A stretch of 64,000 bases of DNA, from contig CAOJFV010000002.1 of the NCBI GenBank assembly GCA_948434985.1, forward strand, positions 17,873-81,872, written 5' to 3'. A program made the translations under genes and the position numbers. The notes under the pieces were generated by a model, which saw only the letters and a program-made list of their open reading frames with translations, had not been told where the DNA came from and did no database searches. This DNA comes from an uncultured Clostridium sp. (GTDB lineage: Bacteria; Bacillota; Clostridia; TANB77; CAG-508). Below are positions 34,283 through 54,486 of the stretch, one piece after another. Every line of letters starts with the position of its first letter. Position 1 is the stretch's first letter.

Positions 34283-34345
34283 AAAGTCCACGCCCGTTGT
34301 TCGCTCGCAAAATTTTATGAAATAAAATTTGTGTGGAATCTTTAT
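34283..34345 (+). other. GC-rich structured ~65-nt motif, copy E1 (AAAGTCCRCG...TTGTTCGCYCGC + hairpin + TGTGGAAT)
   Basis: aaagtccacgcccgttgttcgctcgc-caaaatttta tgaaa taaaatttg-tgtggaat; second copy at 54348-54410. Confidence 0.4.
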
Positions 34346-34349
34346 CTAA

Positions 34350-34390
34350 TTTTCTTATTAATTAAAGAACGCTCATATCATTTTATGAGC
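34350..34390. terminator. Bidirectional intrinsic terminator
   Basis: Perfect 13-bp stem aaagaacgctcat/atgagcgttcttt with A-run/T-run flanks. Confidence 0.65.
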
Positions 34391-34473
34391 GTTCTTTTTA
34401 TATTATTCTTGTCTTTGTATATTATTTTAGAATATACAAAGACAGAGACTCAAGAAGAGCCTCTGTCCTTGTA

Positions 34474-34716
34474 TCAAAATCTCACGCCCAAGCCAAATGC
34501 TTGTATCAATTTGGCAAGTTCAAGAGAGTTTTTATGATTGCAACATGGACATTTGAAAAAAAGATACGCTTTCTTACTTCCTTCCATCATTCCTCCGCAA
34601 TCGACATCACGCTTTTGTACGTCTTTAGCAGAAATCTCAAGTTCGGCACTGCACTCTTGACAAACTACCCGCATAACCTTTGCTTCTTTTTTAGTGCCCT
34701 CTTTAATGATTTTCAT
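34474..34716 (-). CDS. Zinc-ribbon domain protein
   Basis: 80 aa with CQEC...CPCC cysteine pairs; RBS AAAGGAGGA. Contains an in-frame CGG read as Arg (VMRVVC). Confidence 0.5.
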   Translation of the reverse strand: MKIIKEGTKKEAKVMRVVCQECSAELEISAKDVQKRDVDCGGMMEGSKKAYLFFKCPCCNHKNSLELAKLIQAFGLGVRF

Positions 34717-34810
34717 ACAAAATCCTCCTTTGATATGTGTAATTGTACATATTTTAATACTACTAATAATACTAAAATAATTATATCATACAACTTTTCA
34801 TTTGTCAAAG

Positions 34811-36445
<1,635 letters not shown>

Positions 36446-36695
36446 TTATAAAAACAAAAAACAGATTAAAAAAATTCCTGAAAAATCGGTTTTTTTTTAA
36501 TCTATTCTCTAACTCTATGTATCTAGTTTAACATTTCTAAATACAAAATGCAACATTTTTTTCAAAAAGTTTTATAATTAATTGCTTATTAATAAAAATG
36601 TTATATATTTATTTCATATAAAATGATTTTACTTTTTTTACTCATATGTTATAATCAATGTGATACTTTAATAAATTTAGTTAGGAGATATACAT

Positions 36696-37640
36696 ATGAT
36701 AAAAGAAACTTATGATTTTTATAGTCCGTTTAATTTTAAATTATACAATCTAAACCCTAAAATACAATATCAGTTAGATTTACTTGCATCACACGATTTA
36801 CTTACAAGAAAGCATAGCGAAAATGTCGCAAATTTAGTTTATAGACTTTGCGAATATTTACATTGTAATTATAAATTTACATTTTATTGTACATGTTGTG
36901 CTTATTTACATGATATTGGAAAATTATTTATTTCTTTAGAAATTTTAACCAAACCTGATAAATTAACTGAAGAAGAATTTGAAATTATGAAAAATCATAC
37001 AAAATTAGGTTATGATTTATGTTATAAAGATTTAGAATTGCGTCCATATGCTGATGGTGCTTTATACCATCACGAATCGTTAAATGGAAGTGGTTATCCA
37101 AATGGTGCTACAAAAAAAGATATACCATATATGGCACAAATTCTTCGTGTTGCAGATGAATATGATGCTCTTGTAAGTAAAAGGCATTATAAAACTCACG
37201 TAAATATCTCTGAAACTTTAAAAATATTAATAAAAGAAGCTCAAGGTGAAGAATATACAAAAACAATCGCATTAGATCAACTATCAAAAGACTCTAAGTT
37301 AGGAAAAATTAATCCTAAAGTTTTAAAAAAACTATTTAAAGTTGTTATCGATGATACTATGTATGAAATTGCTTGCATTAAAGAATATGTAGCTCATTTA
37401 TTAAATGAAGTGGAAAGATTAAAATTAATAGATAAATTTAATACAAAAATGCTTGCAGCAAAAAAAGATAAAAAGAAGGAATATTACTTAAATGGAATTA
37501 AAGCACTTTTAAAAAGAGGAGAAACTCCTGAAAATTATAAACAGATTTTAGAAGAATATAAAGAAGCAATTGAAAGTAAAAAATTTATGATAAATAAACT
37601 TTATGATGAAATTAAGATTATAAATAAATTAAAAGTATAA
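36696..37640 (+). CDS. HD-GYP domain protein (putative c-di-GMP phosphodiesterase)
   Basis: HD motif YLHDIGK and YHHESLNGSGYPNG (HHExxDGxGYP-like). Confidence 0.7.
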   Translation: MIKETYDFYSPFNFKLYNLNPKIQYQLDLLASHDLLTRKHSENVANLVYRLCEYLHCNYKFTFYCTCCAYLHDIGKLFISLEILTKPDKLTEEEFEIMKNHTKLGYDLCYKDLELRPYADGALYHHESLNGSGYPNGATKKDIPYMAQILRVADEYDALVSKRHYKTHVNISETLKILIKEAQGEEYTKTIALDQLSKDSKLGKINPKVLKKLFKVVIDDTMYEIACIKEYVAHLLNEVERLKLIDKFNTKMLAAKKDKKKEYYLNGIKALLKRGETPENYKQILEEYKEAIESKKFMINKLYDEIKIINKLKV

Positions 37641-37981
37641 AAATAAATAATATTATTTAAAGAATAAAAGCTAAAACAAGGTTCTATTTCCTGTTTTAGC
37701 TTTTTATAATCACAAATATCCTATTTGCAACCACTTTGTATATTTATTATATGTACCTATGTAATAAATATACAAAAATGATAAAAGGAAACTTGTCCTA
37801 AGTTTCCCAACTTTTAAAATTTATTACTGTTACTAATGTCAATTAGCAACCTATTTGTATTTTAATTATATCATTTGCTAAAACTATTGTTTATACTTTT
37901 TCAACAATTTCTTCAAATCTTCGAAGTTAGCGCTGTTTGATATTTCTAATAGTTCTTGCATTTGATCTTATTAATTTACAC

Positions 37982-38410
37982 CTAATTCAAATATTGTTTA
38001 AATTTATAAGAGTGTTTCACAAAATTATTATTTTTATAAAATCTATGTGCATTTTCATTGTTTATGTAACTTGTTAATTCTATTACTTCACAATCATTAC
38101 TTTTTGCATAATCTACTGCATTTTGTAATAGTGCTTTGCCAATCCCTTTATTTCTATATTCTTTATCAACAATTAAATCTTCAATAAAACTTTGTTTTCT
38201 TGCTCTATGAAGTTTAACTTGAATTTCTGAAGTTACTACCCCTACAATTTTATTATCTAAAATTGCCACTATATAATAACTATTTATATCATTTAATTTT
38301 AATTGGTAAATTTGAGAAAATTTATCATATTTCAACTTGTTTTCATATAATTCATTTAGTAATTCAAATACTCTATTTAAATCATTCAATGTTATTCTTC
38401 TTATTTCCAT
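37982..38410 (-). CDS. GNAT family N-acetyltransferase
   Basis: 142 aa; acetyl-CoA binding motif RNKGIGKALLQ. Confidence 0.75.
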   Translation of the reverse strand: MEIRRITLNDLNRVFELLNELYENKLKYDKFSQIYQLKLNDINSYYIVAILDNKIVGVVTSEIQVKLHRARKQSFIEDLIVDKEYRNKGIGKALLQNAVDYAKSNDCEVIELTSYINNENAHRFYKNNNFVKHSYKFKQYLN

Positions 38411-38613
38411 TTTTACCTCCTACTTTTAAATGAACTACTATTATTCGTTAACATTATAACACAAAAAGACATAATATTCAAATGATTAACTATAGTTTTA
38501 TGATAATTTGTACATACTCTATAATTTAATAAAATCTTAAGCTATTTTCATAAAATCTTAAAACCTAATCCCTAAAAATTTTATATAATTGCTTAAGAGG
38601 TGAAAAGGATACT

Positions 38614-39324
38614 ATGAAAAGAAAGAAAAAGAAATCATATATAAAATTAATCATTTTTATTATATTTTTTATAATATGTGGTTTCTATTTAGGAAATAAG
38701 TTTTTCTCCAAATATACACTAGTTGCGACATCTAGCAATATTAATTATTCAGGCGTTGGACAAAGGTCTATTTCTGGAAAAGATGGTTATGTAACTACAT
38801 TTACTACTGCTGACGGAAAAACATACAAAGAATATAAACAAAATGGAAATAGCTCTTGGGCAGAACGCTATTATTGGGGTGGAACAATGTCTGAAAACGG
38901 CTGTGGTATTACTTGTATCGCCACTCTTGCAAGCGGATATGGTAAGAATTATACTCCTGAAGATTTAAGAAAGAAATATGCTCCTAATAAAAATGATCAT
39001 TTAGCAGGTGACCTTATTTCTTTTGAGTTAGAAAATTATTTTGGAATTGATAATTCTGATTTTAAATATTCTAGTGATTATTTTGAAAAGGATTACATTT
39101 TTAATTGGTTAAAAGATGACAAACCTATTTTAATTTGTGTTTGGAATAAGCCTAGTAGCAAATGGACAACCTCTTCTCATTATATGTTACTTCTTGCGAC
39201 AGATAATATTTCTAAAGTTTATGTATCAAATCCAAATGGAGATACAAATAGTCCTAGAGAATCTGGATGGTATGATTATACTGATGTATTACCATATATT
39301 GCAAAAGCTCTTTTTATTATGTAA
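38614..39324 (+). CDS. Membrane-anchored papain-like (peptidase C39-like) cysteine peptidase
   Basis: N-terminal TM anchor. Candidate catalytic Cys in SENGCGITCIATLASGYG and His in SSHYMLLLATD. Confidence 0.45.
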   Translation: MKRKKKKSYIKLIIFIIFFIICGFYLGNKFFSKYTLVATSSNINYSGVGQRSISGKDGYVTTFTTADGKTYKEYKQNGNSSWAERYYWGGTMSENGCGITCIATLASGYGKNYTPEDLRKKYAPNKNDHLAGDLISFELENYFGIDNSDFKYSSDYFEKDYIFNWLKDDKPILICVWNKPSSKWTTSSHYMLLLATDNISKVYVSNPNGDTNSPRESGWYDYTDVLPYIAKALFIM

Positions 39325-39512
39325 GAAATATCTTGTCTATTAACAAAGGTTATATGATTTATTTTATACATTTCAGGTTATAACCTTCCCACTGATGCTG
39401 TAACAATGCAAATGCATTTAACAGCATTCAGCGGTCCCCACGTAGTTAAACCCTCCATTTCTAAAATAAATATATAACCTTTGTTTTGAAATTATTATAT
39501 GGATATTTATTT

Positions 39513-41525
39513 CTAATTTGCAATACTAGTCTTTTTTGTAATTGTTTCTTCAATCATATTTACTGTTTTTTCAATTCCTAAAGCATCTACGTTTAAGCTA
39601 ATATCATAATTGCTTAAATCTTTCCAAATTTGTCCTGTGTAATGATTATAATGTTTTTCTCTTGCTTTGTTGATTTTATTTATTTCTTTTAATGCATTTT
39701 TTTCTTCTAAACCATAATATTTTACTGCTCTTGCTATTTTATTTTCTTCATCACTATATAAGAATACTGAAATGACATTTTCATTATCTTTTAATATGTA
39801 ATCTGCACATCTACCAATAATTACACAAGAACCCTTTTCTGCTATTTCTTTTATTGCATTTGTTTCTGCAATAAATAAATTATCATCATTCGTTAAGTTA
39901 TTATAATATTGTGAATTGAAATTTGATAATAATTTATCTGTTATATTTTGTTCTTTTTCTTCAATATATGATGCTGATAATCCACTTTCGCTTGATACCA
40001 TCATTATTAAATCTTTGTCATATAATTTTATTCCTAGTTTTTCGGCAAGTAACTTTCCAACATATCTACCACCTGAACCATATTCACGATTAATTGTAAT
40101 TATTAGATTGTTTTTTTCTTCTATGTTCTCTTCTTTTACATTTTCTATTTTTTCTTCACTTTCATTTTTATTTTCTTCTTTGTTAAATTTCTTTACTTGA
40201 AGAACTAATAAAATAACTGCTATTATAAATGCAAATCCATCCGCTATTGGTCCTGCATATAAAACTCCCATAACACCATAGAATTTAGATAATATAATGG
40301 CTGATGGTATGTAAAACAAAATTTGTCTAGATAATGTAAGAAATGCAGATTTTGTTGGTTTTCCTACTGCTTGGAAGAATATACCTGATGAAATTTGAAT
40401 TCCGTTACAAAACGTTAACATTAAAAATGTTCTAAATGTTAAACATGCAAATTCATTATACAATTCATCTCCAGAACCAAATATACTAATTAATTTTTCT
40501 GGTATTGTTTGGAATAATATGAATGATACTACTGATACCATTGTACTTAATAATAGTACCCATTTTAATGTTTGTTTTACCCTATCGTATTTCTTTGCTC
40601 CATAATTATATCCAACAATTGGTTGACTTCCTGCTGCAATTCCTATGATAATACTTGCTAAAATCATATTTACTTTCATAACAATTCCATGAACAGTAAT
40701 TGGTATCTCTGTACCAAATTTGCTACTAGCTCCATATATGTTATATAGAGTATTTTGCGCTGTAATAACTATTACAATTGCCATTTGTGTAATAAATGAA
40801 GAAATTCCAAGCATTGCCACATTTTTTATTAATTTTAAAGATAGCTTAAAACTACTTTTTGTAAGCCCAATACTTTTAAATTTCTTTAAATAAAGTATAT
40901 TAATTAAGAAGTTAACAATTTGGCTAATAACAGTTGCAAGTGCCGCTCCTTTAATTCCCATATCAAATACAAATATAGAAATTGGGTCTAATATAATATT
41001 TAAAACAGCACCAATAATCATTGATGTCATTGCATATTTAGGTGAACCATCTGCTCTTATTATTGAGTTTAGAGTAGTTCCTATCATCATAAATGGAATT
41101 CCAATTGCAATTATATAACCATAGTCCATAGCATATGCTCTTAAAGTATCTGTTCCACCAAATAGAGTAATCAAGTTTGGTAAAAATATTAGAATAGCTA
41201 TTCCTAGAATAATAGATAAAATAGCAGATGCTATAATTCCATTTCCAACACCACGTTCTGCTTCTTTTTTCTTTTTTTCACCTAGTTTTAAACTTAAATA
41301 TGCTGATGTTCCATCTCCAAACATTAGAGAAACTGCTAAACATATTACAGTTATTGGGAAAATAATATTTGTTGCTCCGTTTCCTAGATAGTCTACACCC
41401 CATCCTATAAATATTTGGTCAATTATATTGTATAGTGCATTTACTACTAATGATATAATACATGGTACAGAAAATGCCATTAATAATTTTCCTATTTTTT
41501 CTTTTCCTAAATCTAATTGTTTCAT
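39513..41525 (-). CDS. MATE family efflux transporter fused to a C-terminal cytidylate-kinase-like (P-loop NMP kinase) domain
   Basis: About 450 aa with 12 TM helices (MATE). Then INREYGSGGRYVGKLLAEKLGIKLYDKD... of the cytidylate-kinase-like family. Confidence 0.65.
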   Translation of the reverse strand: MKQLDLGKEKIGKLLMAFSVPCIISLVVNALYNIIDQIFIGWGVDYLGNGATNIIFPITVICLAVSLMFGDGTSAYLSLKLGEKKKKEAERGVGNGIIASAILSIILGIAILIFLPNLITLFGGTDTLRAYAMDYGYIIAIGIPFMMIGTTLNSIIRADGSPKYAMTSMIIGAVLNIILDPISIFVFDMGIKGAALATVISQIVNFLINILYLKKFKSIGLTKSSFKLSLKLIKNVAMLGISSFITQMAIVIVITAQNTLYNIYGASSKFGTEIPITVHGIVMKVNMILASIIIGIAAGSQPIVGYNYGAKKYDRVKQTLKWVLLLSTMVSVVSFILFQTIPEKLISIFGSGDELYNEFACLTFRTFLMLTFCNGIQISSGIFFQAVGKPTKSAFLTLSRQILFYIPSAIILSKFYGVMGVLYAGPIADGFAFIIAVILLVLQVKKFNKEENKNESEEKIENVKEENIEEKNNLIITINREYGSGGRYVGKLLAEKLGIKLYDKDLIMMVSSESGLSASYIEEKEQNITDKLLSNFNSQYYNNLTNDDNLFIAETNAIKEIAEKGSCVIIGRCADYILKDNENVISVFLYSDEENKIARAVKYYGLEEKNALKEINKINKAREKHYNHYTGQIWKDLSNYDISLNVDALGIEKTVNMIEETITKKTSIAN

Positions 41526-41738
41526 TTCTTTCTCCCTTCTTCACTCTGTTTTCGCACAAAAAACAACACATTTAAATGTGCTGTTCGTTAATCACTATTT
41601 TTATAGTGTGCGTTTCCATTATTTATTTTAGATTTATATTCTATAATATTTTGTGGAATCTTGTCAATGTTTTTTTTACAAATATTCAAAATATTATAAA
41701 TTGTGTTGCTATTATATTAAATGTGAATTGTAACTTAG

Positions 41739-43049
41739 TTATTCAATTTTCCCAAGTAAATCATAGTCTCTAACTTCTGTTATCTTACAATCTACAAACT
41801 GACCTATCTTGTCTTTAGTTTTGTTTTCATTTTCTATAAAAATAACACCATCCATATCTGGAACATCCATATATGTTCTTCCTATGTAATATTTTCCGTC
41901 AAATGAAACATCTTCTATCATAGTTTTATATGTCTTACCAATCTTATTTTCTAGATTAGTTTTTGATATTTCCTGTTGTAATTTCATTATTTTATTATAT
42001 CTACTTTTTTTAGTTTGAGGATGAATTTGTTCTTTTAATCTTGAGGCTGGTGTACCATCTTCTTTAGAATACATAAATGCACCTAATTTATCAAATTTAG
42101 TTTCTTTAATGAATTCATAAAGTTTATCGAAATCTTCCGTAGTTTCTCCTGGGAACCCAACAATTACAGTAGTTCTTAATATAACTTTTGGTATTTCTTT
42201 TCTTATCTTTTTCATTAATTCTTTTATTGATTCTTCATTACTTTTTCTATTCATTCTTTTTAATACTGTATTAGATACATGTTGAATTGGTATATCAAAG
42301 TATTTACATATTTTATCATTGTTTTTTACAATATTAATTAATTCATCTGTTATTGTTTCTGGATATGAATATAAAAATCTAACCCACTCAATTCCTTCTA
42401 TTTTACAAAGTTTATCTAAAAGCTCTGCCAGCTTTGATTCTCCATATATATCAATACCATATTTAGTAGTATCTTGTGCAATTACTATTAGTTCTTTTAT
42501 TCCTTTTTTAGCAAGTAGAGTGGCTTCTTTTAGTATATCTTCTATTTTTCTACTAACAAATGACCCTCTAATATTTGGTATAGCACAATATGTACATCTA
42601 TTACTACACCCCTCTGCTATTTTTAAATATGCCATTTTATCGCCAGTAGTTATAAGTCTTTTATCATATTCTAAGCTATAGTTTGATACTTTCTCTTCCC
42701 TTTTTATAATTTTTTCTACTTCTTTCCAAAACTCATCATAACTATCACAAGATATAAATAAATCTACTTCTGGTAGTGCCTTTTCTAATTCTTCTTTATA
42801 TCTTTTAACTAAGCAACCTGTGGCTATAATATATTTACATCTACTTTTTTTATATTCTGCCATTTCTAAAATTGTATTGATTGCTTCTTCTTTAGCACTT
42901 TCTATAAATCCACAAGTGTTTATTAATATTATATCTGCAACACTTGGATTATTTACAATATTATATTCTTGTTCTTTAAATAACCCTATCATCATTTCTG
43001 TGTCTACTAAATTTTTACTACATCCTAGTGATACAAATCCTATATTCAT
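41739..43049 (-). CDS. rimO: Ribosomal protein S12 methylthiotransferase RimO (MiaB-like radical SAM)
   Basis: MTTase N-domain, radical SAM CxxxCxxC (CSNRCTYCAIP), and C-terminal TRAM domain. Confidence 0.8.
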   Translation of the reverse strand: MNIGFVSLGCSKNLVDTEMMIGLFKEQEYNIVNNPSVADIILINTCGFIESAKEEAINTILEMAEYKKSRCKYIIATGCLVKRYKEELEKALPEVDLFISCDSYDEFWKEVEKIIKREEKVSNYSLEYDKRLITTGDKMAYLKIAEGCSNRCTYCAIPNIRGSFVSRKIEDILKEATLLAKKGIKELIVIAQDTTKYGIDIYGESKLAELLDKLCKIEGIEWVRFLYSYPETITDELINIVKNNDKICKYFDIPIQHVSNTVLKRMNRKSNEESIKELMKKIRKEIPKVILRTTVIVGFPGETTEDFDKLYEFIKETKFDKLGAFMYSKEDGTPASRLKEQIHPQTKKSRYNKIMKLQQEISKTNLENKIGKTYKTMIEDVSFDGKYYIGRTYMDVPDMDGVIFIENENKTKDKIGQFVDCKITEVRDYDLLGKIE

Positions 43050-43160
43050 TTTCTTCCTCTTTCTTTAAAATATCTATAATTTTATCACATTTTGTCGTGT
43101 TTTTCTAGACTATTTTATAATATTTAGTATATAATAATTATAATTTAAGGAGGTTTTATT

Positions 43161-43881
43161 ATGACACCACATATTGAAGCAAAAAAAGAAGAAATTGCAA
43201 AAACTGTATTAATGCCTGGTGATCCACTTCGTGCAAAACTTATTGCTGATAATTTTTTAGAAAATGCTAAGCTTGTAAATTCTGTTCGTAATATTTTTGC
43301 ATACACAGGATTATATAAAGGAAAAGAAATAACTGTTATGGCTTCACGGAATGGGAATGCCTAGTATGGGGATTTATTCTTACGAACTATTTAAGTTTTA
43401 TGATGTAGAAAATATAATAAGATTAGGCTCTTGTGGAGGATATAATAAAGATTTAAATTTATTTGATTTGGTACTTGTAGATAATTCTTATACCGAAGGC
43501 AATTATGCCCTAAGTATTGATAATACCGATTGTCATTTTATAAATTCAAGTAATAAACTTAACTCTATAATTGAAGATACTGCAAAATCAATAGATATAT
43601 CTATAAAAAAATCTAATATTGCTTGTGGTGAAGTTTTTGATGCTTATATGAGTGATATGTCTAAATACTTAGAAAGATTACCAAAAGAATATAATATATC
43701 AGGTGCTGAAATGGAGGCTTTTGCGTTATTTTATAATTCAAAATTGTTAAATAAAAATGCTGCTTGTATACTTACTGTTGTTGATTCGTATTTTTATAAT
43801 GAAAATGTATCAGCTGATGCTAGACAAAACTCATTAAATCAAATGATTAATCTTGGACTAGAAAGTGCTATTAAAATATAA
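43161..43881 (+). CDS. deoD: Purine nucleoside phosphorylase DeoD-type; frame interrupted at an in-frame CGG
   Basis: [44 protein letters not shown]... then a break. TCA CGG AAT (43347-43349): skipping the C gives ...[21 protein letters not shown]..., the conserved PNP core. Confidence 0.9.
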
Positions 43882-44066: not shown

Positions 44067-44984
44067 ATGAGTACACTTATTTTTGGACATAAAAACCCAG
44101 ATACAGATTCAATCTGTTCTAGTTTAGTTATGGAAAAATTTGATAAAAATTTAGGATTTGATGTAGAGGCTGTAAGACTTGGTGATGTTAATAAAGAAAC
44201 AGCTTATGTACTAAATTATTTAGGAATTGAAGCACCAAGAATGATATCTTGTGTAGAAGAAGGACAAGCTGTAGTTTTAGTAGATCACAACGAATTTTCA
44301 CAAAGTGCTGATGGAATTGAAAAAGCAAAAATCGAAACAGTTGTAGATCATCACAGAATTGCAAACTTCCAAACAGCTGAACCATTATATTATAGAGCAG
44401 AACCAGTAGGTTGTACATCTACTATTCTTTACAAAAAATTTAAAGAAGAAAATATGACAATTGAGAAAAAAGAAGCTGTTTTAATGCTTTCTGCAATTGT
44501 ATCAGATACATTGTTATTTAAATCACCAACTTGTACTGAAGAAGATAAAAAGGCATGTGCAGAACTTGCTCGTATTGCTGAAATTGATGTTAATACATAT
44601 GGCTTAGATATGTTAAAAGCAGGAACTGATTTAAGTGATTTTACACCTGACGGATTAATTAATATTGATTCAAAAGAATTTGCAAATGGAGATTTCAGAT
44701 TCCAAGTCGCACAAGTAAATACTGCTTGTATTGAAGATGTATTAAAGGGTAAAGCAGAAATTGAAAATGCTATGCAAAACTTTATAAATTCTAATGGATT
44801 AAACTTATTTGTATTTTTAATTACAGATATTATAAATAGCAATTCTCAATGTGTTGTTTTAGGTAATAATACAGATATATTTGAAAAAGCATTTAATACA
44901 AAATTAGAAGATAATATGGCATTTTTAGAGGGTGTTGTTTCTAGAAAGAAACAAGTTGCTCCTATTATTTTGAATACTATATAG
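44067..44984 (+). CDS. ppaC: Manganese-dependent inorganic pyrophosphatase (DHH family II)
   Basis: MSTLIFGHKNPDTDSICS and DHH/DHHA2 motifs. Promoter TTGATT-17-TGnTATAGT at about 44001-44035. Confidence 0.9.
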   Translation: MSTLIFGHKNPDTDSICSSLVMEKFDKNLGFDVEAVRLGDVNKETAYVLNYLGIEAPRMISCVEEGQAVVLVDHNEFSQSADGIEKAKIETVVDHHRIANFQTAEPLYYRAEPVGCTSTILYKKFKEENMTIEKKEAVLMLSAIVSDTLLFKSPTCTEEDKKACAELARIAEIDVNTYGLDMLKAGTDLSDFTPDGLINIDSKEFANGDFRFQVAQVNTACIEDVLKGKAEIENAMQNFINSNGLNLFVFLITDIINSNSQCVVLGNNTDIFEKAFNTKLEDNMAFLEGVVSRKKQVAPIILNTI

Positions 44985-44995
44985 TTTTTTTAATA

Positions 44996-45030
44996 ATTTA
45001 TATAAAAATCAAAACGTATTACAAAAAAGG
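44996..45030. terminator. Bidirectional intrinsic terminator
   Basis: Stem aaacgtattac/gtaatacgttt with A-run/T-run flanks. Confidence 0.65.
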
Positions 45031-45051
45031 TAATACGTTTTATTTTATATA

Positions 45052-45642
45052 TTAAAGTATTGGTATAAACTTTGGAGTTTTATTTTCTATTTTACATATA
45101 CGTCTTTCGTGGTTATTTAATACCCTTTCTATCATCCTACGTTGTTTTTCTACACTTTGTATTATTGTCCCACAGTTTTCTACTACTGCTCCTTCAACTT
45201 CATCAATTTTGGTTTTAACTTGTGATATTTCTGTTTTTAATTCCTCTCTTAATTCTTCTTTTGCATCTTTTATTTCTTCTTTTAGTTCTTCCTTAATATT
45301 ATGCATTTCTTCCCAAGTTTTGATTTGGTTTCTATACAACTCCTTTATTTGTTGTTGCATACCTCCCATTTGATTTTGCATTCCATCAAATTGTCCTTGT
45401 AAACCGTCAATTTGACCTTGCATGCCTCCTATTTGATTTTGCATTCCATCAATTTGACCTTGCATACTTCCTATTTGATTTTGTATGCCTCCTATTTGAT
45501 TTTGCATTCCATCTACTTTGCTAGCAATAATACTAACTTGTGATAAAATTTGTTTTGCTATGTTTTCTTCCATAAAAACAACCTTCCTTTCTATATTATA
45601 TTTGGGGATAAATGTTTTAATACTGTATATTTGACAAAACAT
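45052..45642 (-). CDS. Hypothetical repeat protein (Q/G/M-rich nonapeptide repeats plus coiled coil)
   Basis: Repeats QNQIGGMQG/QIDGMQNQIGG are encoded by tandem DNA repeats at about 45350-45545. Confidence 0.4.
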   Translation of the reverse strand: MFCQIYSIKTFIPKYNIERKVVFMEENIAKQILSQVSIIASKVDGMQNQIGGIQNQIGSMQGQIDGMQNQIGGMQGQIDGLQGQFDGMQNQMGGMQQQIKELYRNQIKTWEEMHNIKEELKEEIKDAKEELREELKTEISQVKTKIDEVEGAVVENCGTIIQSVEKQRRMIERVLNNHERRICKIENKTPKFIPIL

Positions 45643-45730
45643 TTTGTATCCTTATTGTAATACAGTAATTGTCAAATTGCAAGTAAAAATCTAAATATTT
45701 TACAAAAACTTTTCGACAAATTGCGACACT

Positions 45731-46798
45731 TTACAAAATTTTTCCTCCACCTACTACTATATCTCCTTTATAAAACACGACTGATTGTCCTTTAGTTATA
45801 GCTCTTTGTGGATTTTCAAATTCTACCTTTATTTTATCTTTTTCTATAGGTATAATTTTTGCTTCCGCTTCTTTTGCTCTATATCTTATTTTAGCTGTTA
45901 CTTTCATTTCTTGTTCTAATTCTTCAAATAGTAAGAAATTTAGTTCATTTGCATATAATTCTTTCTTATATAATTCTTCTTCAGTTCCTACTATTACTTG
46001 GTTCTCTTTTTCTTTTAAATCAACAACATATAATGGTTCTTTATATGAAATCCCTAATCCCTTTCTTTGACCTATTGTATAATATATCAAACCATTATGT
46101 TTTCCTACTATTTCTCCATTTTTAGTTACTATGTTTCCTTTCTTTGGAGCATTTTTCATATTTTGTATTAAAAAATCTGTATATTTATTATTAGGTATAA
46201 AACATACTTCTTGACTATCTGGCTTTTTAGCTACTAGCAAGCCATGTTTTTCTGCAATGCTTCTAACTTCTTGTTTATCAGTATAATTTTCTAAAGGAAA
46301 TAGCATTTTAGGTATTACCTCTTTTGGTATTCCATATAAAAAGTAAGTTTGGTCTTTTGCTACTTCATTTGATTTTTTTAAAACATATTGATTACATTCT
46401 TCATCAAACTCTGTTTTCGCATAATGACCTGTTGATATATAATCACATCCTAATTCCATTGCTTTTTTATAGAATAGATCAAATTTTATGTGTTTATTAC
46501 ATTCAATACATGGGTTTGGAGTTTTGGTACATCCATAACATTTTATGAAATCATCTATTACATATTTCTTGAATTCTTCTTTATAGTTTAATGTATAGTG
46601 TGGAATTCCTAATTTATCACATACTCTTTTTGCATCATAAACAGCACTTAAAGAACAGCATCCACTTTCTACATTAGCTGTTTCATCTTGCCACAATTCC
46701 ATTGTAGCTCCTATTACTTCATAGCCTGATTCTTTTAATAAGATTGCAGATACAGAACTATCTACTCCTCCACTCATTCCTAATAATACTTTTTTCAT
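45731..46798 (-). CDS. mnmA: tRNA-specific 2-thiouridylase MnmA
   Basis: PP-loop SGGVDSS; 355 aa. Confidence 0.9.
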   Translation of the reverse strand: MKKVLLGMSGGVDSSVSAILLKESGYEVIGATMELWQDETANVESGCCSLSAVYDAKRVCDKLGIPHYTLNYKEEFKKYVIDDFIKCYGCTKTPNPCIECNKHIKFDLFYKKAMELGCDYISTGHYAKTEFDEECNQYVLKKSNEVAKDQTYFLYGIPKEVIPKMLFPLENYTDKQEVRSIAEKHGLLVAKKPDSQEVCFIPNNKYTDFLIQNMKNAPKKGNIVTKNGEIVGKHNGLIYYTIGQRKGLGISYKEPLYVVDLKEKENQVIVGTEEELYKKELYANELNFLLFEELEQEMKVTAKIRYRAKEAEAKIIPIEKDKIKVEFENPQRAITKGQSVVFYKGDIVVGGGKIL

Positions 46799-46838
46799 TT
46801 TATTTTCATTCCTTTAAAAAACATTGCTTTATTTTATC

Positions 46839-47726
46839 CTAATTTATTTTACTTAATAGTTCTTCTAATTCTTCCTTACTGAAATTATATTCTTTATTGC
46901 AGAAATGACATACTGTATTAATGTTCCTTTCAGTATTTATAATATCTTGTAGCTCTTTTTTTCCTATTGCAATTAATCCTCTTTCTATCTTTTCTTTACT
47001 ACAGTCACATTCATAAACAGGTACTATATTATCCTCTATTATTTTAACATTTACATCTCCTGTAATATCTTTTGCAATTTCTTCTAGAGTCATATTTTCA
47101 TCTAACATTTTGCTTATAGGTTTTGCCTCTTTTATTCTGTTTTCTAAAATGAATAAATCATCTTCTGTAGCATCTGGCATTGGTGTTACAACATATCCTC
47201 CACTTGATTTTACCCCTTTACTATCTACCAAAACTCCTAATGCAACTGCTGTATTTGTTTGTTCAGATGTAGCAAAATAATTTGTAAAATCTTCCGCAAT
47301 TTCACCTGTCACTAGTGGAACCATTCCTATATATGGGTCTTTTAGCCCTATATCTTTTATTATATTTAAATATCCCTCTTTACCTACTGCTCCCCCAACA
47401 TCTAATTTTCCATTTAAATTTAGTGGAATATCTACTAATGGATTTTGTACATATCCTTTTAGTTTTGGTGAATTACTTGCTACAACTACAATTCCTCCAA
47501 GTGGTCCATTTCCTTTTATTTGTATAGTTAGCTTATCTTCTTCATTTTTCATATTACTTGCCATTATACTAGCAATAGTTAAAGTCCTTCCAAGTGCTGC
47601 TGTTGCTACTGGGCTTAAATCATGTGTCATTCTTGCTTTTTCTACCAAATATGTAGTATTAGCACATATTATACTTACTCTTCCATCATATGCTAAAAAT
47701 TTTATAATTTTATCTTTATTTTCCAT
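46839..47726 (-). CDS. hslO: 33 kDa chaperonin Hsp33 (redox-regulated)
   Basis: C-terminal zinc centre CDCS...CHFC; 295 aa. Confidence 0.85.
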   Translation of the reverse strand: MENKDKIIKFLAYDGRVSIICANTTYLVEKARMTHDLSPVATAALGRTLTIASIMASNMKNEEDKLTIQIKGNGPLGGIVVVASNSPKLKGYVQNPLVDIPLNLNGKLDVGGAVGKEGYLNIIKDIGLKDPYIGMVPLVTGEIAEDFTNYFATSEQTNTAVALGVLVDSKGVKSSGGYVVTPMPDATEDDLFILENRIKEAKPISKMLDENMTLEEIAKDITGDVNVKIIEDNIVPVYECDCSKEKIERGLIAIGKKELQDIINTERNINTVCHFCNKEYNFSKEELEELLSKIN

Positions 47727-47804
47727 TTGTATCTCCTATAAATAATTTGATAGTGCTAATTATACCATATATAGCAAAAAAAGAAAAGGTATATACCTTT
47801 TCTT

Positions 47805-49043
47805 TTATTCTTCTTCAAACATATCTTTTCCTACTCCACATAATGGACATACCCATGTATCTGGTAATTCTTCAAATGGTGTTCCTGGTGCTATTCCATT
47901 ATCTGGATCTCCAATTTCTGGATTATATTCATATCCACAAGCTAAACATTTATACATTTCATTTCCTCCTCTCAACTTAAATATATTTTTATATCCTAGC
48001 GCAATTACTGCAACTACAATTAACGCAAATGATAGTGCTTTCCATATTCCGCTTTCTAATAATACTATTGCAAACATTCCAAATGTAGCACTAATTCCAT
48101 ATAATATTAAAACTGCCTCTTTTTGTGTAAATCCTTTTTTTAGCATTTTATGGTGTAAATGTCCTTTATCTGGCATTACTACTGCTTTTAAAGATTTTCC
48201 TTTTATTAGTCTTCTAATAATTGCAAACAGTGTATCAAACACTGGAAGTGCAAGTACTATTAGCGGTGCTACTATTACTATTAAAGTATATGTTTTTGCA
48301 ATTCCTAATATTGATATTACAGCTAATGAATAACCTAAAAAATTAGACCCTGTATCTCCTATAAAGGTTTTTGCAGGATTAAAGTTAAATGGTAAAAATC
48401 CTGTTAATGCTCCTGCAAGTGCTGTTATCATAATAATTGCAATTAGTGGTGAACCATTTAGTGAAAATATAATTATTAATGATAAACATGATATTAATGA
48501 TATTCCTGAAGATAGCCCATCTAATCCATCTATTAAGTTAATTGCATTCGTAATCCCTACTATCCAACCAAGTGTTAACATCGTAGAAAATACTTTGTTT
48601 AATTCCATTAGCTCATCTGTCTCTAAAAATGGTATACTTATATGTTCTATTATTATGCCACTTTTTATTACTAAAATTGCCGCAATTATTTGACCTGCAA
48701 GTTTTACAAGTGGTGAAATTCCTTTTAAATCATCTATAAAACATACTATTATTATAACCAATGCTCCAAGAAAAAATCCAACTAATTTCAAATAGTACTG
48801 TTCTTCTCCTAAATTAATTGACCCTTCTATCCCCATAATTGTAAGTAAATATATTATAGATACTAGAAATCCTGCAATAACAGCAAGACCTCCTAAACGT
48901 GGCATTACTTTTTTATTTATTCTTCTTTCATCTTTTGGTGAATCAACTGCACCTACTTTTTTTGCTAGTTTAATAGTATATGGTGTGATAACAAATGCTG
49001 TAATAAATGCAAGTAAAAATGCAATTGCTATGTCTCCCCACAT
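47805..49043 (-). CDS. Glycosyltransferase family 4 (WecA/TagO/MraY-like phospho-sugar transferase) with C-terminal rubredoxin domain
   Basis: Multi-TM transferase with DDLKG and [12 protein letters not shown] motifs. C-terminal [13 protein letters not shown]...[15 protein letters not shown] is a rubredoxin fold (CxxCG...CPxCG). Confidence 0.7.
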
Positions 49044-49155
49044 AAGTAGACCTCCTACTATATCTTTAATTTTATATTTACAAATATATCACAATAAGAT
49101 GTATATTACAACATTTTTTTAATATATATGTAATATATTATGGAGGTTGTTTAAA

Positions 49156-50345
49156 ATGAAGTCGCACTTTTTCGTTTTATCTATAAAGAAACATATATTG
49201 CCAAGCTTATTTATACTTTTTACAATATGTTTAGTAATCTTTTCTAAAGAAAATTTGTCTGCAACAAAAAATGGATTACTATTATGGGCAAATTCTGTTG
49301 TCCCTGCTCTTTTACCATTTTTTATAGCTACTGAATTATTAAGTCATACTGAAGTAGTAAATTTTATTGGTAAGTTATTAAATAAATATATGAAACCTAT
49401 TTTTAATGTACCTCGGTATTGGTGCTTATGCTTTTATTATGGGAATTATAAGTGGCTATCCAGTTGGTGCAAAAATTGTTACAGAGTTTAGAAAAAATGG
49501 CAATTGCTCAAGAGCTGAAGCTGAAAGATTACTTGCTTTTACTAATAATTCTGGACCACTTTTTATTATTGGTACTGTTGGTGTTAGTATGTTTGGTAAT
49601 ACTTTGATACGGATTATTATTATTTATAACTCATATATTATCTTGTATTATAGTTGGCTTTTTATTTAGATTTTGGAAATATAATGATAGAGAATTGGTA
49701 TCATCAAAAAAATCTTCAGTATCTTCAAAAACTGCTGTAACATTTTCAAATTTAGGAGAAGTGTTATCTACTAGTATTATGAATTCAGTTAATACTATTG
49801 TTATGATTGGTGGATTTGTAATTCTATTTTCTGTAATAATATCAATTTTAAATAATTCTGGATTATTAGATATAGTTTGCAAAATGTTTTATCCAATTTT
49901 TAATTTGTTAAATATTGATATAAATTTTATTAAACCTATTATTTCAGGATTCGTAGAACTTACAAATGGATTAAATAATCTTTCTTGTATTAATACTAAA
50001 TCTTTTTCTACTTTAATTACTTTTGCAAGTTTTATTTTAGGATTTGGTGGTATAAGTGTGTGCCTTCAAGTTTTAAGTATCACTTCAAAATCAGATATTT
50101 CAATAAGTGCTTATATTATAGGAAAATTATTACAAGGTACAATTGCAGCCATTTTAACATATGTTATTATTCACATTTTCCCAATATTTAATCTGGATTT
50201 AGTACCAATTTTTTCTCAGAATGTGAATAAATTGCCTGCATTTACTGCATATATTAATCCTTATAATATAGTGATTTTACTTTTAATTATTAGTACTGCT
50301 ACTTTTATTTTATTTAATAGAAAAAAATATAAACTTTATAAATGA
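49156..50345 (+). CDS. YlbJ/SpmA-SpmB-like nucleoside-recognition-domain membrane protein; frame interrupted twice at in-frame CGG codons
   Basis: Three consecutive ORFs (49147.., 49406.., 49695..). CCT CGG TAT (49414-49416) gives ...NVPGIGAYAFIMG... and ATA CGG ATT (49610-49612) gives ...TLIGLLLLFITHIL..., so one continuous membrane protein. The real start is the ATG at 49156 (GGAGG 9 nt upstream). Confidence 0.6.
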
Positions 50346-50427
50346 TAAAATTATCATATGTACTTTGATTTTGAATATAAGTATAAAGAACTATTATTAA
50401 TTTTTATATAAGATTGGAGTGTTTATA

Positions 50428-50646
50428 ATGGATAGAAATATGGATTTTGGTGGTTACGATAATATGAATTTTGACCCTAATATGGTAAACGATAATATGT
50501 ATAGGGATCCTATGTTTAACCCTATGTTACAATATGAACAAGCGTATATGTACTATAGATATTTGTCTCAACAAATGGAATATAAGATAAGGTGTAAAGA
50601 ATATGATAAGCTTTGTGGCAAAGAAAAAGAAAGAAGAATTGAGTAA
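50428..50646 (+). CDS. Hypothetical Tyr/Met-rich small protein
   Basis: ORF with RBS GGAG 9 nt upstream; low-complexity, spore-coat-like composition. Confidence 0.3.
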   Translation: MDRNMDFGGYDNMNFDPNMVNDNMYRDPMFNPMLQYEQAYMYYRYLSQQMEYKIRCKEYDKLCGKEKERRIE

Positions 50647-50895
50647 TTCTTCTTTCTTTATTTAACAATTACATTATTTCCAAAAAATTGTCTTGATTTT
50701 TTATATATTTTGTTAAAATATCTATAATTTATAATCTTTCAACTTTGGTTTTACATTATGATTTTTTATTCTAATTTCAAACAATTATATATTTTCATTT
50801 TATATTTATTATCATATAAATTACATCTAGATATTCATAGAAAAATTGTATTTACTTATTATTTTATAAATGATATAATTAGAAAGGTGACTATT

Positions 50896-51153
50896 TTGCC
50901 AACTATAAGTATGTTTTATGGCATTATAATTCGTATGTTCTATGATGACCATAATCCACCACATTTTCATGTTGACTATGGAGATTATTCTGCTATGTTC
51001 GATTTTGATGGTATTTTAATTCAAGGAACTATTTCAAAACGTCAGCAAAAATTAATTGAAGCTTGGGCTGTATTACATAAGGATGAATTAGTAGCTAATT
51101 GGAAATTATCAAAAAATAATGAAACACTATTTTATATAAATCCATTAACTTAA
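50896..51153 (+). CDS. DUF4160 domain protein
   Basis: TTG start with RBS GAAAGGTGA. ...MFYGIIIRMFYDDHNPPHFHVDYG... is the DUF4160 signature. Confidence 0.6.
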   Translation: MPTISMFYGIIIRMFYDDHNPPHFHVDYGDYSAMFDFDGILIQGTISKRQQKLIEAWAVLHKDELVANWKLSKNNETLFYINPLT

Positions 51154-51166
51154 GGGGGGGCTTAAT

Positions 51167-51400
51167 TTGAAAAAAATTATTAATGTAGAACCATTGGAAG
51201 ATTATAAATTATTATTAACTTTTGATGATAATATAAAAAAAATAAAAGATATGAAACCATATCTTGATAAAGGTGTATTTAAAGCTTTACGTGATAGAAA
51301 TGTGTTTAATAATGTCAAAATAGTTCTAGGAACTATTGCTTGGGGAGATATCGATATGTGTCCTGATTCTTTGTATGAATCTAGTAAAACAATAGAATAG
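51167..51400 (+). CDS. DUF2442 domain protein (partner of DUF4160)
   Basis: TTG start after a GGGGGGG RBS, 14 nt downstream of the DUF4160 stop. Size and sequence fit DUF2442. Confidence 0.5.
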   Translation: MKKIINVEPLEDYKLLLTFDDNIKKIKDMKPYLDKGVFKALRDRNVFNNVKIVLGTIAWGDIDMCPDSLYESSKTIE

Positions 51401-51432
51401 AAATGAACAAGATATCATATCTTGTTCATTTT

Positions 51433-52303
51433 TTATCTTATTTCCTCTTCATCTCCCATATGTTCCTCTTTTATATCTCTTTGTAATTCAGCTGTAAGTC
51501 TTGTTCTAAAATCTTCTAACATTTCTGTAAGAGTATCTAATATTGATAAATCTAAATCATAATTACTTGCAATTTCTTCATTTTTACTTGCTAAAATTCT
51601 TGCCATTCTTGCTTTTATTGATATATTAAATTTTATAACTTTAAACATAGAAATTCTATTTTTTATACGTTCTTCAAGCTGTATACTGTCTATCTGTGAA
51701 AAAGTACTTTCTAATCCGCCTTCCATATGATTTTTGTATTCTGTTTAGTACTTCTTCTAATGCTATAATCTGATATCGTATATTGGCATATTGTTCATCT
51801 GAATTTTGAGCAATAATTTCAAATTTACAAGCATTTATTTTTAATTCAGTTCTAATTGTTTCTATTTTTTCTTGTATTAAATTCACATTATTTATTTCTG
51901 TGATTCTTGTATATTTCTTGTTGTTTTCACCTGTTGTCGTTTTCTTCAAGCTTCGTTTTGAAAAGACTCTTTTGACTTTATCTCCAAATTTTTCTTTTTC
52001 TTGCTCTGTGTTCTCGTCTATTGTTAATATTAACTCTTCTTGCATATCTTTTATTCTTGTAGAATGAATATTTAATAATCCTATCATCAAGTCTATTTCT
52101 CTATTAATTTCACCTATTTCACTGTCACAAAACCCATTAATTGTTTGCGGTAATTTTAAATTTATCTGTCCAATATAATTATCAACTATTATTATATCTT
52201 CTTCTGATAATTCTGAATATCTTGGTATTCCTATAGACAGCTCATTATCTTCTTGTATATCTTGTTTTCTTTCTTTATCCATCTCTTTCATTTTCCTCTT
52301 CAC
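51433..52303 (-). CDS. Hypothetical protein (~290 aa); frame interrupted at an in-frame CGG; second gene of a two-gene operon
   Basis: ORFs 51674..52303 and 51433..51726 fuse when the C of AGG CGG ATT (plus 51716-51718) is skipped: ...RIQKSYGRGLESTFSQIDSIQLEER... Its start overlaps the upstream gene's stop (ATGA). Confidence 0.5.
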
Positions 52304-54161
52304 GTTTTATAATTCTATCCATTTCTTGTTTTGACATCATTTGTACCTTTTCATAATCTATTGGTAAATCTGAAATATTTGCTAAATTTATACATATATT
52401 AAATGTTGCGCCTGAAGAATATCTATAAGAGCTATAGTTTCTAAATACTTCTATTCCCAATCCCTTAAAATCCATTTTATATTTTTCCCATAAAGGTCCT
52501 GTATAACTTCTACAATAATATCTACTTTCATATTTTGAACCATATGCAAAGCTATGACTCACTTCAACGTCCTCATATCCTTCTTCTATTGGAATTGGTG
52601 CTGACTCTAATGCCATTATTCTTCCCCAATACCTATTTGGCTCTCTCATATCTTCTAACGGTAATTCCCACTCATTATATTCAATATCTAATAATAAATA
52701 TATTCTTTTTATTTCCATTAATATTTCCTTATTTTCTTCTAATGAAAGTCTTTTACCTTTTAATCCTTCAAAATGCTTTATCCTTTTCTCTAGTTGTTCT
52801 ATTTTTTCCTCATTTCTTCTTTCTGTATTGCTTTCTTTATTTATCATATCTTGTATTAATAATATAATCATATCAATATTAGTAGTAATTATACCCGTTT
52901 TTTTGATTTGTTCTACTTTGGTATCTAAATAATTTGGGTTATTTGAATACTGCTTATTTTTTCTTTTTCCATGTTGGGCATTAAACAATTCTAAATCAAT
53001 AATTTCTCCTTTTAAATCTTCTATAGAATATTCTTTTTCTTCGTAATCAAAATCATATGCTAATCCCGTAAGAGATAATTTACAGAATCCTTCTTCTTTT
53101 TTTGTTTCATTTTTTTCATTTATCATTTGCTTAAATCTTTCTGAATTATGTACTTTATCAAAAATCATTTTTACACATTTTTGTCCTATACCTATCATTA
53201 TTGGCCTGCATTCAAATCCAAATTTTTGATATATTCTTTCACATTCTATAATACTAATATCCTCATCAGTTATTAAGTTCCTTAATACTGCATATAAAAT
53301 CGAAAAATTTACTTTATTCGTTTTTAGTGTAGCACCTTCTCTTATTTTAAAATCATCCCAAACAATTTTTTTCCATTGTTCAGATGTTAGATATACTTCT
53401 TTTTCAAATGGGTTATTTCCTATATTACATAAATGCGCATTAAAAATTGGAGCTCTTACCAAATTTATATAATTGAATGGATTTTTATCCATATCCATTA
53501 CAATTAATCTTTCTAATAATTTGCCATTGCTTAATATTTCTTTTGGTTCTATTTTTAATATCTGGTCATTTTTTCCTTTTGGATCATATAGCGACTTAAT
53601 TTTCTCCTTTAGCATTTCAATGAAAATATTTTTTTCTCTTTCATTTTCATATTGTATTAAATTACTATCTTTTCCACCGTTTTGATAAACTAGTTCTTCT
53701 ACTTGTTTTCTATATAAAACATCAAATTTAAACTTAGTAATTTTATCTTGTAATTCACAATCTGACCCATATAGTTTTGTTAATTCTTCTAATGTTTCTA
53801 TACTTTGTAAGATATACTCTAATCCTTGAAAATTCTGATAACTTTCTGAGTTTTCTAATTTTTCTATATATGCTAATATAATGTCCTTATATTGTAATCT
53901 TGTTTTATATATATACTCATCTAACTGTAACTCTATTTTTGATATTTCTTTTATAATAATATTTTCTAATTCAGAATATTTATCATATACCTCTTCTTGT
54001 ATTATTACATTATATCCTTCTATATATTTTTCTTTTATGTATGTTATATTTTTAGCTTCTTTACAATTCAAACCATATAACATTTTAAATAACTTAGTTA
54101 GTTTATTTATTCTTTGCAACATTACTTTAAATTTTAATTCTATATTTTTTTCTGATAACAC
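52275..54161 (-). CDS. Hypothetical large protein (~628 aa), first gene of a two-gene operon
   Basis: The start is probably the GTG at 54161 (RBS AAGGAG 7 nt upstream) rather than the ATG at 54182, which lies inside the RBS. No recognisable motifs. Confidence 0.5.
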   Translation of the reverse strand: MLSEKNIELKFKVMLQRINKLTKLFKMLYGLNCKEAKNITYIKEKYIEGYNVIIQEEVYDKYSELENIIIKEISKIELQLDEYIYKTRLQYKDIILAYIEKLENSESYQNFQGLEYILQSIETLEELTKLYGSDCELQDKITKFKFDVLYRKQVEELVYQNGGKDSNLIQYENEREKNIFIEMLKEKIKSLYDPKGKNDQILKIEPKEILSNGKLLERLIVMDMDKNPFNYINLVRAPIFNAHLCNIGNNPFEKEVYLTSEQWKKIVWDDFKIREGATLKTNKVNFSILYAVLRNLITDEDISIIECERIYQKFGFECRPIMIGIGQKCVKMIFDKVHNSERFKQMINEKNETKKEEGFCKLSLTGLAYDFDYEEKEYSIEDLKGEIIDLELFNAQHGKRKNKQYSNNPNYLDTKVEQIKKTGIITTNIDMIILLIQDMINKESNTERRNEEKIEQLEKRIKHFEGLKGKRLSLEENKEILMEIKRIYLLLDIEYNEWELPLEDMREPNRYWGRIMALESAPIPIEEGYEDVEVSHSFAYGSKYESRYYCRSYTGPLWEKYKMDFKGLGIEVFRNYSSYRYSSGATFNICINLANISDLPIDYEKVQMMSKQEMDRIIKREEENERDG

Positions 54162-54347
54162 AATATAACTCCTTCTAATCATTCTTTCAGCAATAGTATA
54201 TCACACTTTTACATAATTGTAAATGTTTTATGTATATTTAGTATGTAATATTAAAACAGTATTTCTTAATTTTTTATATACTCGGCACAAAACAGTTTAA
54301 AGAACAAAAGCGGATATCAAGAACATTGTAACTGTTTAAAACATTTA

Positions 54348-54410
54348 AAGTCCGCGTCTTTGTTCGCCCGCGAAAAATTGCTATGCAATTTTTCTGTGGA
54401 ATGTATTTAT
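54348..54410 (+). other. GC-rich structured ~65-nt motif, copy E2
   Basis: aaagtccgcgtctttgttcgcccgcg-aaaaattgc tat gcaattttt-ctgtggaatg; the hairpin arms covary with E1. Confidence 0.4.
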
Positions 54411-54486
54411 ATAATAGGAAGTTCGGAGAACTTTCCTATTATATAAAAAAAAGTGGTATTACTACCGCTTCTTTTTTATCTTATAT

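Follow-up and report, generated by a model that had tools for sequence, protein, structure and literature searches.

REP/BIME repeats, with their RAYT transposases (IS200/IS605-like, Y1), and palindrome-associated elements derived from IS200/IS605 have hairpins near both ends and insert beside a short target in one orientation. Class C group II introns of bacteria insert just after the stem-loops of intrinsic terminators, also in a fixed orientation. Small interspersed repeats known as BOX, RUP and SPRITE have been described in pneumococci (Croucher et al. 2011, PMC3049150). The present work concerns two copies, E1 and E2, of a previously undescribed hairpin-forming, non-coding repeat on a 64,000-nt stretch of DNA from an uncultured Clostridium sp. 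(assembly GCA_948434985.1, contig CAOJFV010000002.1; the whole stretch is referred to as the window). E1 lies between pyrG and groES, and E2 between a pyrimidine-nucleoside phosphorylase gene and a gene for a hypothetical protein of 628 amino acids (aa). E1 and E2 are probably copies of a non-coding, non-autonomous mobile interspersed repeat of the BOX/RUP/SPRITE/REP kind that inserts at the T-tracts of terminators; the family is restricted to one lineage of uncultured, AT-rich Clostridia of the gut.

Like the pneumococcal elements, the repeat is non-coding, measures less than 200 bp and numbers tens to hundreds of copies within one lineage. Both have extensive predicted hairpins and a modular build (boxA, boxB and boxC there, a core and a 3' hairpin here), and both are enriched downstream of genes; SPRITE lies near 3' ends and has termini of A or T runs, and an empty site or target duplication could not be defined for it (PMC3049150). 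There is no sequence similarity between the two, however, and the host belongs to a different class. BOX and RUP possess terminal inverted repeats and target duplications whereas the Clostridia repeat shows neither, and it differs further in its fixed junction with the T-tract of a pre-existing terminator and in a strong orientation rule.

An earlier reading of the window, hereafter the original prediction, had described two direct-orientation copies of a ~65-nt motif at 34283-34345 and 54348-54410. The motifs are real, homologous and both on the + strand, but these limits take in only the 3' two-thirds of a larger unit. When E1 and E2 were aligned including their flanks, similarity began ~50 nt further left, at AGAACA..AG(T/C)GGA; this upstream block is the reverse complement of AAAGTCC(A/G)C, and its T/C difference matches the A/G difference. 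The degenerate motif had a chance expectation of 0.00 in the window, as estimated from shuffles. A covariance model of the family (R1) matched E2 with 93.9 bits (E = 8.9e-19) and E1 with 82.5 bits (E = 3.4e-16), and gave no third copy in the 64-kb window. The copies are GC-enriched as had been proposed (35-38% against ~27% for the window). E1 and E2 are members of two diverged subfamilies of one repeat family.

Each unit consists of a core with two hairpins, P1 and P2, followed by a 3' module. The core matched by the model spans 34235-34337 in E1 and 54301-54400 in E2, and the limits of the helices were taken from the consensus fold and pair counts. P1 of E1 (34237-34301) has an outer box at 34237-34242 and 34296-34301 and an inner box, GTGGAC/GTCCAC, at 34244-34249 and 34286-34291 around an AT-rich terminal loop; P1 of E2 (54303-54364) has its outer box at 54303-54308 and 54359-54364 and its inner box, GCGGAT/GTCCGC, at 54310-54315 and 54350-54355. 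P2 lies at 34305-34336 in E1, where it is closed by TCGC/GTGG and contains a G.T pair and a 1-nt T bulge, and at 54368-54399 in E2, with closing pairs CCGC...GTGG. The 3' module of E2 (54406-54446), a long hairpin of the form TATATAATAGGAAGTTC-GGA-GAACTTTCCTATTATATA, is common to most family members. That of E1 (34338-34365) is degenerate, and by-eye comparison with full copies such as L018 indicates that the top of its hairpin appears to have been deleted. By family alignment and model match the whole of E2 measures ~145 bp (54302-54446), its 3' boundary falling within an A-run at 54444-54452. A terminator scan placed a host bidirectional intrinsic terminator directly beside each unit: E1 abuts the A/T-tract of the terminator of pyrG and a neighbouring 80-aa open reading frame (ORF; terminator 34364-34397), and E2 abuts the A-tract and terminator of the phosphorylase gene (54445-54478).

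The limits of E1 were read from genomes that lack it. Contigs gathered by exact match to the GroES protein of the window were of two types. The filled type (the window, L070 and others) contains pyrG, the 80-aa ORF, a 447-bp spacer and groES, and in the empty type (L071 from GCA_022791395.1, L073, L076 and L077) the spacer measures 186 bp. Both types have the same right-hand flank, including the groES promoter and CIRCE (34146-34200, - strand; -35 TTGACA at 34200-34195, CIRCE at 34146-34172), and the terminator beside E1 is likewise present in the empty allele (L071). Compared with this allele the window carries exactly 130 extra bases (34236-34365, + strand; boundary rotatable by up to 2 nt to the left), as established by direct reading and by script comparison. 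The empty allele (L071/L073) reads CACAAAA^AGAACGCTC; the filled allele reads CACAAAA, the inserted GAACAGCAG...TTAATTAA, then AGAACGCTC, and the 5' edges of insertion and family consensus coincide. Movement or loss involves the entire unit. A sibling with identical GroES, promoter and CIRCE does without E1, which is therefore polymorphic as an insertion and plays no part in groESL control. For E2, no second empty site was obtained among the relatives, whose contigs break at palindromes or have different downstream genes; a 92%-identical relative (L099) has a terminator homologous to that of E2 that is not then followed by the unit, which confirms only the terminator-side junction. A putative empty site in the comparison of L024 with L053 was too diverged to read.

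The same spacer varies in other segments. The 80-aa ORF (34405-34716, - strand), which has a weak zinc-ribbon match and lies between pyrG and its terminator, is accompanied by a promoter-like region upstream and a pair of hairpins downstream (34405-34470); all of these are found in the window and in contigs of the L070 type but not in the L071 type. This segment is a second indel polymorphism of the pyrG-groES spacer. A GC-rich hairpin (34068-34105; GGGCGGACACGGGGCCCGCCC at 34077-34097) stands in a ~70-bp segment of the groES 5' untranslated region (UTR), between CIRCE and the ribosome-binding site, that is absent from the L071-type genome and single-copy in the window.

Species-representative genomes were scanned for exact matches to a 21-base motif, AAAGTCCRCG-N3-6-TTGTTCGCNCGC, which gave 69 stretches: 66 in 27 species-level metagenome-assembled genomes (MAGs) of Clostridia and three GC-rich chance matches (Acidobacteriota, Pseudomonadota and Thermomonas). 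The 27 MAGs are labelled uncultured Clostridia or Clostridium sp. and derive from gut samples of human, mouse, rabbit and others; 15 stretches came from a single rabbit MAG, and several matches lay at contig ends. The covariance model, built from 53 cores, found 91 copies in 469 kb of fetched loci and 23 further copies in 27 metagenome contigs. Copies adjoin unrelated genes, an E1-like copy is present at an unrelated locus in another species (L013), and tandem arrays with a 153-bp period were seen (L026, L010, L055, L057 and L014). Decayed, 5'-truncated and 3'-truncated copies exist, decayed and truncated ones being common, and a subfamily typified by L063 has a different inner box in P1. A miniature repeat element had been one option in the original prediction, and it is the one borne out by the multiple copies in 27 related MAGs, the unrelated neighbours, the tandem arrays and the unit-wise presence or absence at pyrG-groES; the motif lies within a repeat, an outcome that the prediction had itself named as refuting it.

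Several loci show further features of the family. The truncated copy at L058 3079-3103 (orthologues in L128, L129 and L131) ends directly at the ribosome-binding site and ATG of the downstream gene. A fuller copy occupies the orthologous site in L137 (1985-2068), where the flanks of the two species are 87-90% identical, and the L058 copy is therefore an old decayed insertion. In one MAG, two copies of a different core of ~70 nt (..TTTGAGTTTTCNACTG..AAAATCTCAAA..; L033 2580-2700 and L036 2500-2660) precede the TAGGAA/TTCCTA hairpin, A-run and terminator arrangement seen in the repeat; since an unrelated core carries the same 3' module, this module may be what matters for placement. In several genomes (L042 ~3510-3580, L045/L124 ~4020-4085 and L047 ~4920-5000) a second small element, with inverted ends of ~38 bp (ATGAAACTTTAAGTYACGCAACTCAAAGTGAAAATAAAT), is nested in the repeat's 3' hairpin; it may be an insertion sequence (IS) or miniature inverted-repeat transposable element (MITE) that targets this hairpin. 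A larger parent element was sought in a subfamily whose P1 loop is missing and rejected, as its common 3' sequence stops after ~200 nt and is not an IS.

Helices were judged by RNAalifold and by explicit pair counts over the family cores. The ~100-nt core contains two helices with strong covariation. P1 is a long hairpin with outer boxes pairing GAACAAW with WTTGTTC (U-A in 27 and A-U in 23 at the variable pair) and an inner pairing GYGGAC/GTCCRC (C-G in 45, U-A in 5); the boxes flank an asymmetric internal loop (1 nt by 3-5 nt), and the cap is a ~37-nt AT-rich loop. P2 is the internal hairpin of the original prediction. It is closed by SCGC/GTGS (closing pair G-C in 26, C-G in 18) and has a near-invariant G.T pair on the + strand (49/53 copies) and a 1-nt bulge. 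The compensatory change suspected there is real, with double-sided changes at 7 of 12 pairs across the family. An outer helix between TCCRC and GTGGA, also proposed, did not survive: its second pair (55/105) is broken in 32 of 52 sequences. The actual partner of TCCRC is the upstream GYGGA, with C-G to U-A covariation, and the CGC block immediately 5' of the hairpin is the partner of the 3'-terminal GTGG (G-C 26 : C-G 18). Overall the bases pair in 98.1% of pair cells, and the covariation score was 0.277 against 0.066 for shuffles and at most 0.031 for slid-partner controls. Most copies continue, after a variable linker often containing a GCGAAGC mini-hairpin, into a 3' hairpin with a conserved TAGGAA..TTCCTA base. 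A subfamily with the P1 loop cut to AAA is multi-copy (L019, L041, L062 and L127), so the loop is dispensable.

The placement of the repeats relative to genes was scored with gene orientations taken from a crude ORF call, in which E1 was mis-scored, its true neighbours both being on the opposite strand. Of 59 scorable copies, 51 have at their 3' side a gene that converges on the repeat from the opposite strand. Copies between tandem genes are antisense in 27 cases and sense in 5, and 17 copies occupy convergent spacers against 3 in divergent ones. Under strict criteria an A-tract, stem-loop and T-tract follow at least 24 of 52 copies, with more visible by eye, and these downstream terminators mostly start 42-62 nt past the core, that is, directly after the 3' module. 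Upstream of the repeat, a terminator-like site was present in only 7 copies and at scattered distances. The unit comes to lie in one orientation at the outer edge of intrinsic terminators, where the end with the 3' hairpin meets the T-tract (A-tract when read on the + strand of the repeat). The adjacent terminators differ at every locus, and the one beside E1 is found in the empty allele too; they are therefore host sequences and are not carried with the unit. In convergent pairs the unit stands between the stop codon of one gene and the shared bidirectional terminator (L040), and copies fall within a 3' UTR in the + sense at some loci and past a terminator in antisense at others. This mixed transcription context argues against a single role at the RNA level. 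A replication-strand bias was also considered and set aside as uninformative, as local GC skew tracks gene orientation and convergent regions were C-rich in 9 cases and G-rich in 7.

The unit has no terminal inverted repeats, since its 5' end AGAACAAWAGYGGAC and 3' end ..TTCCTATTATATAA are not reverse complements and its inverted repeats are all internal (P1, P2 and the 3' hairpin). It shares with REP/BIME the form of imperfect extragenic palindromes at the 3' ends of genes and the lack of terminal inverted repeats and target duplication, but REP is a single palindrome of 20-40 nt with a GTAG-type head, whereas this unit is 130-200 bp with three to four different hairpins. A hairpin at each end (P1 and the 3' hairpin) without terminal inverted repeats or target-site duplications may point to the IS200/IS605 or REP/RAYT type, and the sole common feature of the targets is a T-run. 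No conserved target tetranucleotide was evident beyond the T-run after the terminator hairpin, and no Y1 transposase was seen near any copy in 8-kb loci.

Other classes were compared in the same way. The repeat is small, non-coding (no ORF lies within the unit), multi-copy and stably folded with presence/absence polymorphism, as are MITEs such as Correia, ERIC and bcr1; MITEs, however, are defined by terminal inverted repeats and target-site duplications, and the ends of this repeat (GAACAA... / ...CCTATTATATAA) are not inverted copies. P2 bears a superficial likeness to domain V of class C group II introns: it measures ~34 nt, its base is CGC and includes a G.U pair, and its 3' strand carries a bulge. 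It has the polarity of domain V on the + strand, whereas insertion in the terminator sense needs the opposite strand, and a group II intron remnant was rejected on this ground, on the absence of a 5' GUGYG and on the lack of any Rfam intron match even at relaxed thresholds. The two paired boxes of P1 with an unpaired spacer, a terminal loop that can shrink to 3 nt and the head-to-tail arrays of short units recall integron attC sites and clusters of attC sites lacking an integrase. In contrast to attC, the boxes are GAACAA/TTGTTC and not the R-box consensus RYYYAAC/GTTRRRY, the internal loop (1 nt by 3-5 nt) is not symmetric, and copies are scattered at terminators and not gathered in one array. 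The 3' hairpin bears some resemblance to a dif/XerC arm and an FRT arm; the second arm is absent and this resemblance was set aside.

If the repeats are mobile units that insert at terminator T-tracts, a trans-acting enzyme encoded elsewhere would mobilize them, probably recognizing the folded hairpins on a single strand together with a target composed of a hairpin and a T-run. Pairing would be kept by compensatory change because such an enzyme would need folded hairpins. The closest precedent for this route would be IS200/IS605- or RAYT-like, and an RNA-mediated route is a minority possibility. Neighbouring genes might gain additional 3' hairpins or have a terminator insulated from the next promoter, but any such effect would be a by-product.

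A number of observations weigh against a mobile repeat. A mobilizing enzyme or autonomous parent was not found near copies, and an all-against-all comparison of 626 ORFs from the 8-kb loci gave no recurrent protein family. Target duplication was not detected family-wide, the longest common word of a copy's own two flanks averaging 6.59 nt against 6.61 nt for mismatched pairs; isolated flanking direct repeats are AAAGAAC (7 nt) at E1 and ~12-16 nt at L035. AAAGAAC is present at both E1 junctions, and because the empty allele has one more A in its homopolymer, a 7-bp duplication and none are indistinguishable there. The clean empty site is a single one, and precise loss could fit it in place of gain. 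Some orthologous sites are occupied in two species (L030/L049 and L058/L137), so part of the spread is old and vertical. The G.T pair is fixed on the + strand, but neither sporadic mismatches (6 G.U against 11 A.C) nor folding (near-equal on the two strands, the + strand being favoured in 22 of 35 copies and by 1.4 kcal/mol on average) seem to single out a strand. Finally, orientation relative to replication is inseparable from orientation relative to genes, as GC skew follows the latter.

A bolder form of the mobile-repeat reading seems to us rather unlikely. The repeats would then represent a new class of terminator-seeking non-autonomous element in which a folded strand, of DNA or RNA, is joined through its 3' hairpin to the last T's of the T-tract without inverted termini or target duplication. 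The module of 3' hairpin and A-run would serve as a 'handle' for at least two unrelated cores, as short interspersed elements (SINEs) borrow the tail of long interspersed elements (LINEs).

Of the alternatives, it is unlikely that the repeats are 3'-end elements maintained by the host, that is, back-up terminators, insulators or mRNA-stabilizing hairpins that act on the gene-sense strand by read-through from the upstream gene. Such elements have precedent in REP, BOX and SPRITE (PMC3049150). The proposal fits the position right after terminators or stop codons and the reverse-strand P1, which forms a GC-rich stem followed by UUUUGUUCU, and it is consistent with short forms without the 3' hairpin that lie 16-56 nt from the end of a converging gene with no other obvious terminator. 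Yet E1 is dispensable in the sibling genome, most copies are already behind a good terminator and decayed or truncated copies are common, and a 3'-end function covers a possible side effect while leaving the spread and the fixed T-tract junction unexplained.

A set of multi-copy small RNA genes on the + strand, ended by the adjacent bidirectional terminator and with the invariant AAAGUCCGCG..UUGUUCGC as a functional or seed region, is distinctly improbable. The structured RNA had been another option in the original prediction and proved weak. On the + strand neither E1 nor E2 has a promoter-like site within it or ahead of it, and upstream of 54 copies promoter-like sequence was not enriched (7/54 against 7/54 in the control). 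Since the loop-less subfamily has multiplied, an essential promoter inside the P1 loop is ruled out. Structure conserved through covariation and the fixed G.U-compatible pair on the + strand would suit an RNA, but sporadic mismatches do not favour G.U over A.C. Terminators active on the + strand follow E1, E2 and about half of all copies, and the fold of element and terminator together is much more stable than in shuffled sequences (z of -4.7 and -7.05); these terminators, however, are locus-specific host sequences that exist without the element. Nor is the context consistent, being 3' UTR in convergent pairs and antisense beyond the terminator in tandem pairs.

Spread through RNA in the manner of SINEs is still less credible. 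Here the template would be a transcript with the 3' hairpin and A-run at its end, and reverse transcription would start from the 3'-OH at a nick in the T-tract of a terminator. At the 3' junction the A-run does lie opposite a T-tract on the other strand and is oriented as expected for target-primed synthesis, but it is the host terminator's own A-run in the empty allele. Copies truncated at the 5' end retain the 3' junction (L032, L031 and L005), in line with this route, yet 3'-truncated short forms exist too. The absence of terminal inverted repeats, the second, unrelated core with the same 3' module and the flanking direct repeats at E1 (7 nt) and L035 (~12-16 nt) also accord with it, against which stand the lack of general target duplications, the lack of any reverse transcriptase seen near copies and transcription that no evidence supports.

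The original prediction had placed both copies upstream of minus-strand promoters and suggested a tie between the hypothetical operon and the heat-shock regulon. The placement is correct, the 5' end of E1 lying ~36 bp from the groES -35; for the 5' end of E2 the distance to the -35 predicted for the 628-aa gene is ~79 bp. That E1 and E2 are shared operators through which HrcA, CtsR or another factor co-regulates groESL and the 628-aa gene can nevertheless be dismissed as hardly plausible, for although their invariant GC-rich boxes are set as inverted repeats, E1 is missing from genomes with identical GroES, TTGACA/-10 promoter and CIRCE, ~110 other copies flank unrelated genes, mostly at 3' ends, the paired positions covary and are not fixed as operator half-sites are, and the promoter distances are unequal. 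No HrcA- or CtsR-type operator common to E1 and E2 was found beyond the repeat itself, CIRCE is separate from E1, and the repeat has no role in groESL regulation.

Searches for known relatives were negative. Rfam gave no match at the gathering threshold over the whole window and only chance-level matches at relaxed E (up to 1-10) on E1, E2 and a tandem array, and a known RNA family was rejected on this basis. The phage and plasmid collections gave no match to the repeat, and a literature search on the motif strings returned only unrelated primers. Carriage by phage was rejected, as the sole viral contig that matched is host DNA, identical to L021, beyond a prophage integrase and tRNA att site. 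At this locus (L021 132-1700 = L094 13136-14685) the prophage integrase and a tRNA gene, likely the att site, lie ~110-280 nt from a copy of the repeat, which is why one 'viral' contig matched the motif.

Beside E2, the pyrimidine-nucleoside phosphorylase is encoded by two overlapping ORFs of 218 aa and 236 aa (54487-55792, - strand). The C-terminal ORF of 236 aa is found in the same form in many relatives, with identity as low as ~70%, and the split or frameshift is therefore conserved and not an assembly error. Between this gene and rnhB is a perfect palindrome with a stem of ~30 bp (55851-55922; ATGTAGTAATATATTTATTTTGAAAAGCTT...AAGCTTTTCAAAATAAATATATTACTACAT), inside which short-read contigs from several samples end.

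Recognition of the repeat removes a false lead, leaving the groESL promoter region without an extra shared operator and the 628-aa gene without a demonstrated tie to heat shock. The family can now be masked or annotated in MAGs of this uncultured gut lineage, where ends of short-read contigs coincide with the repeat and its palindromes. The strict T-tract junction and fixed orientation, with neither terminal inverted repeats nor target-site duplications, make this repeat a tractable case for studying the movement of small bacterial repeat families of the REP/SPRITE type.

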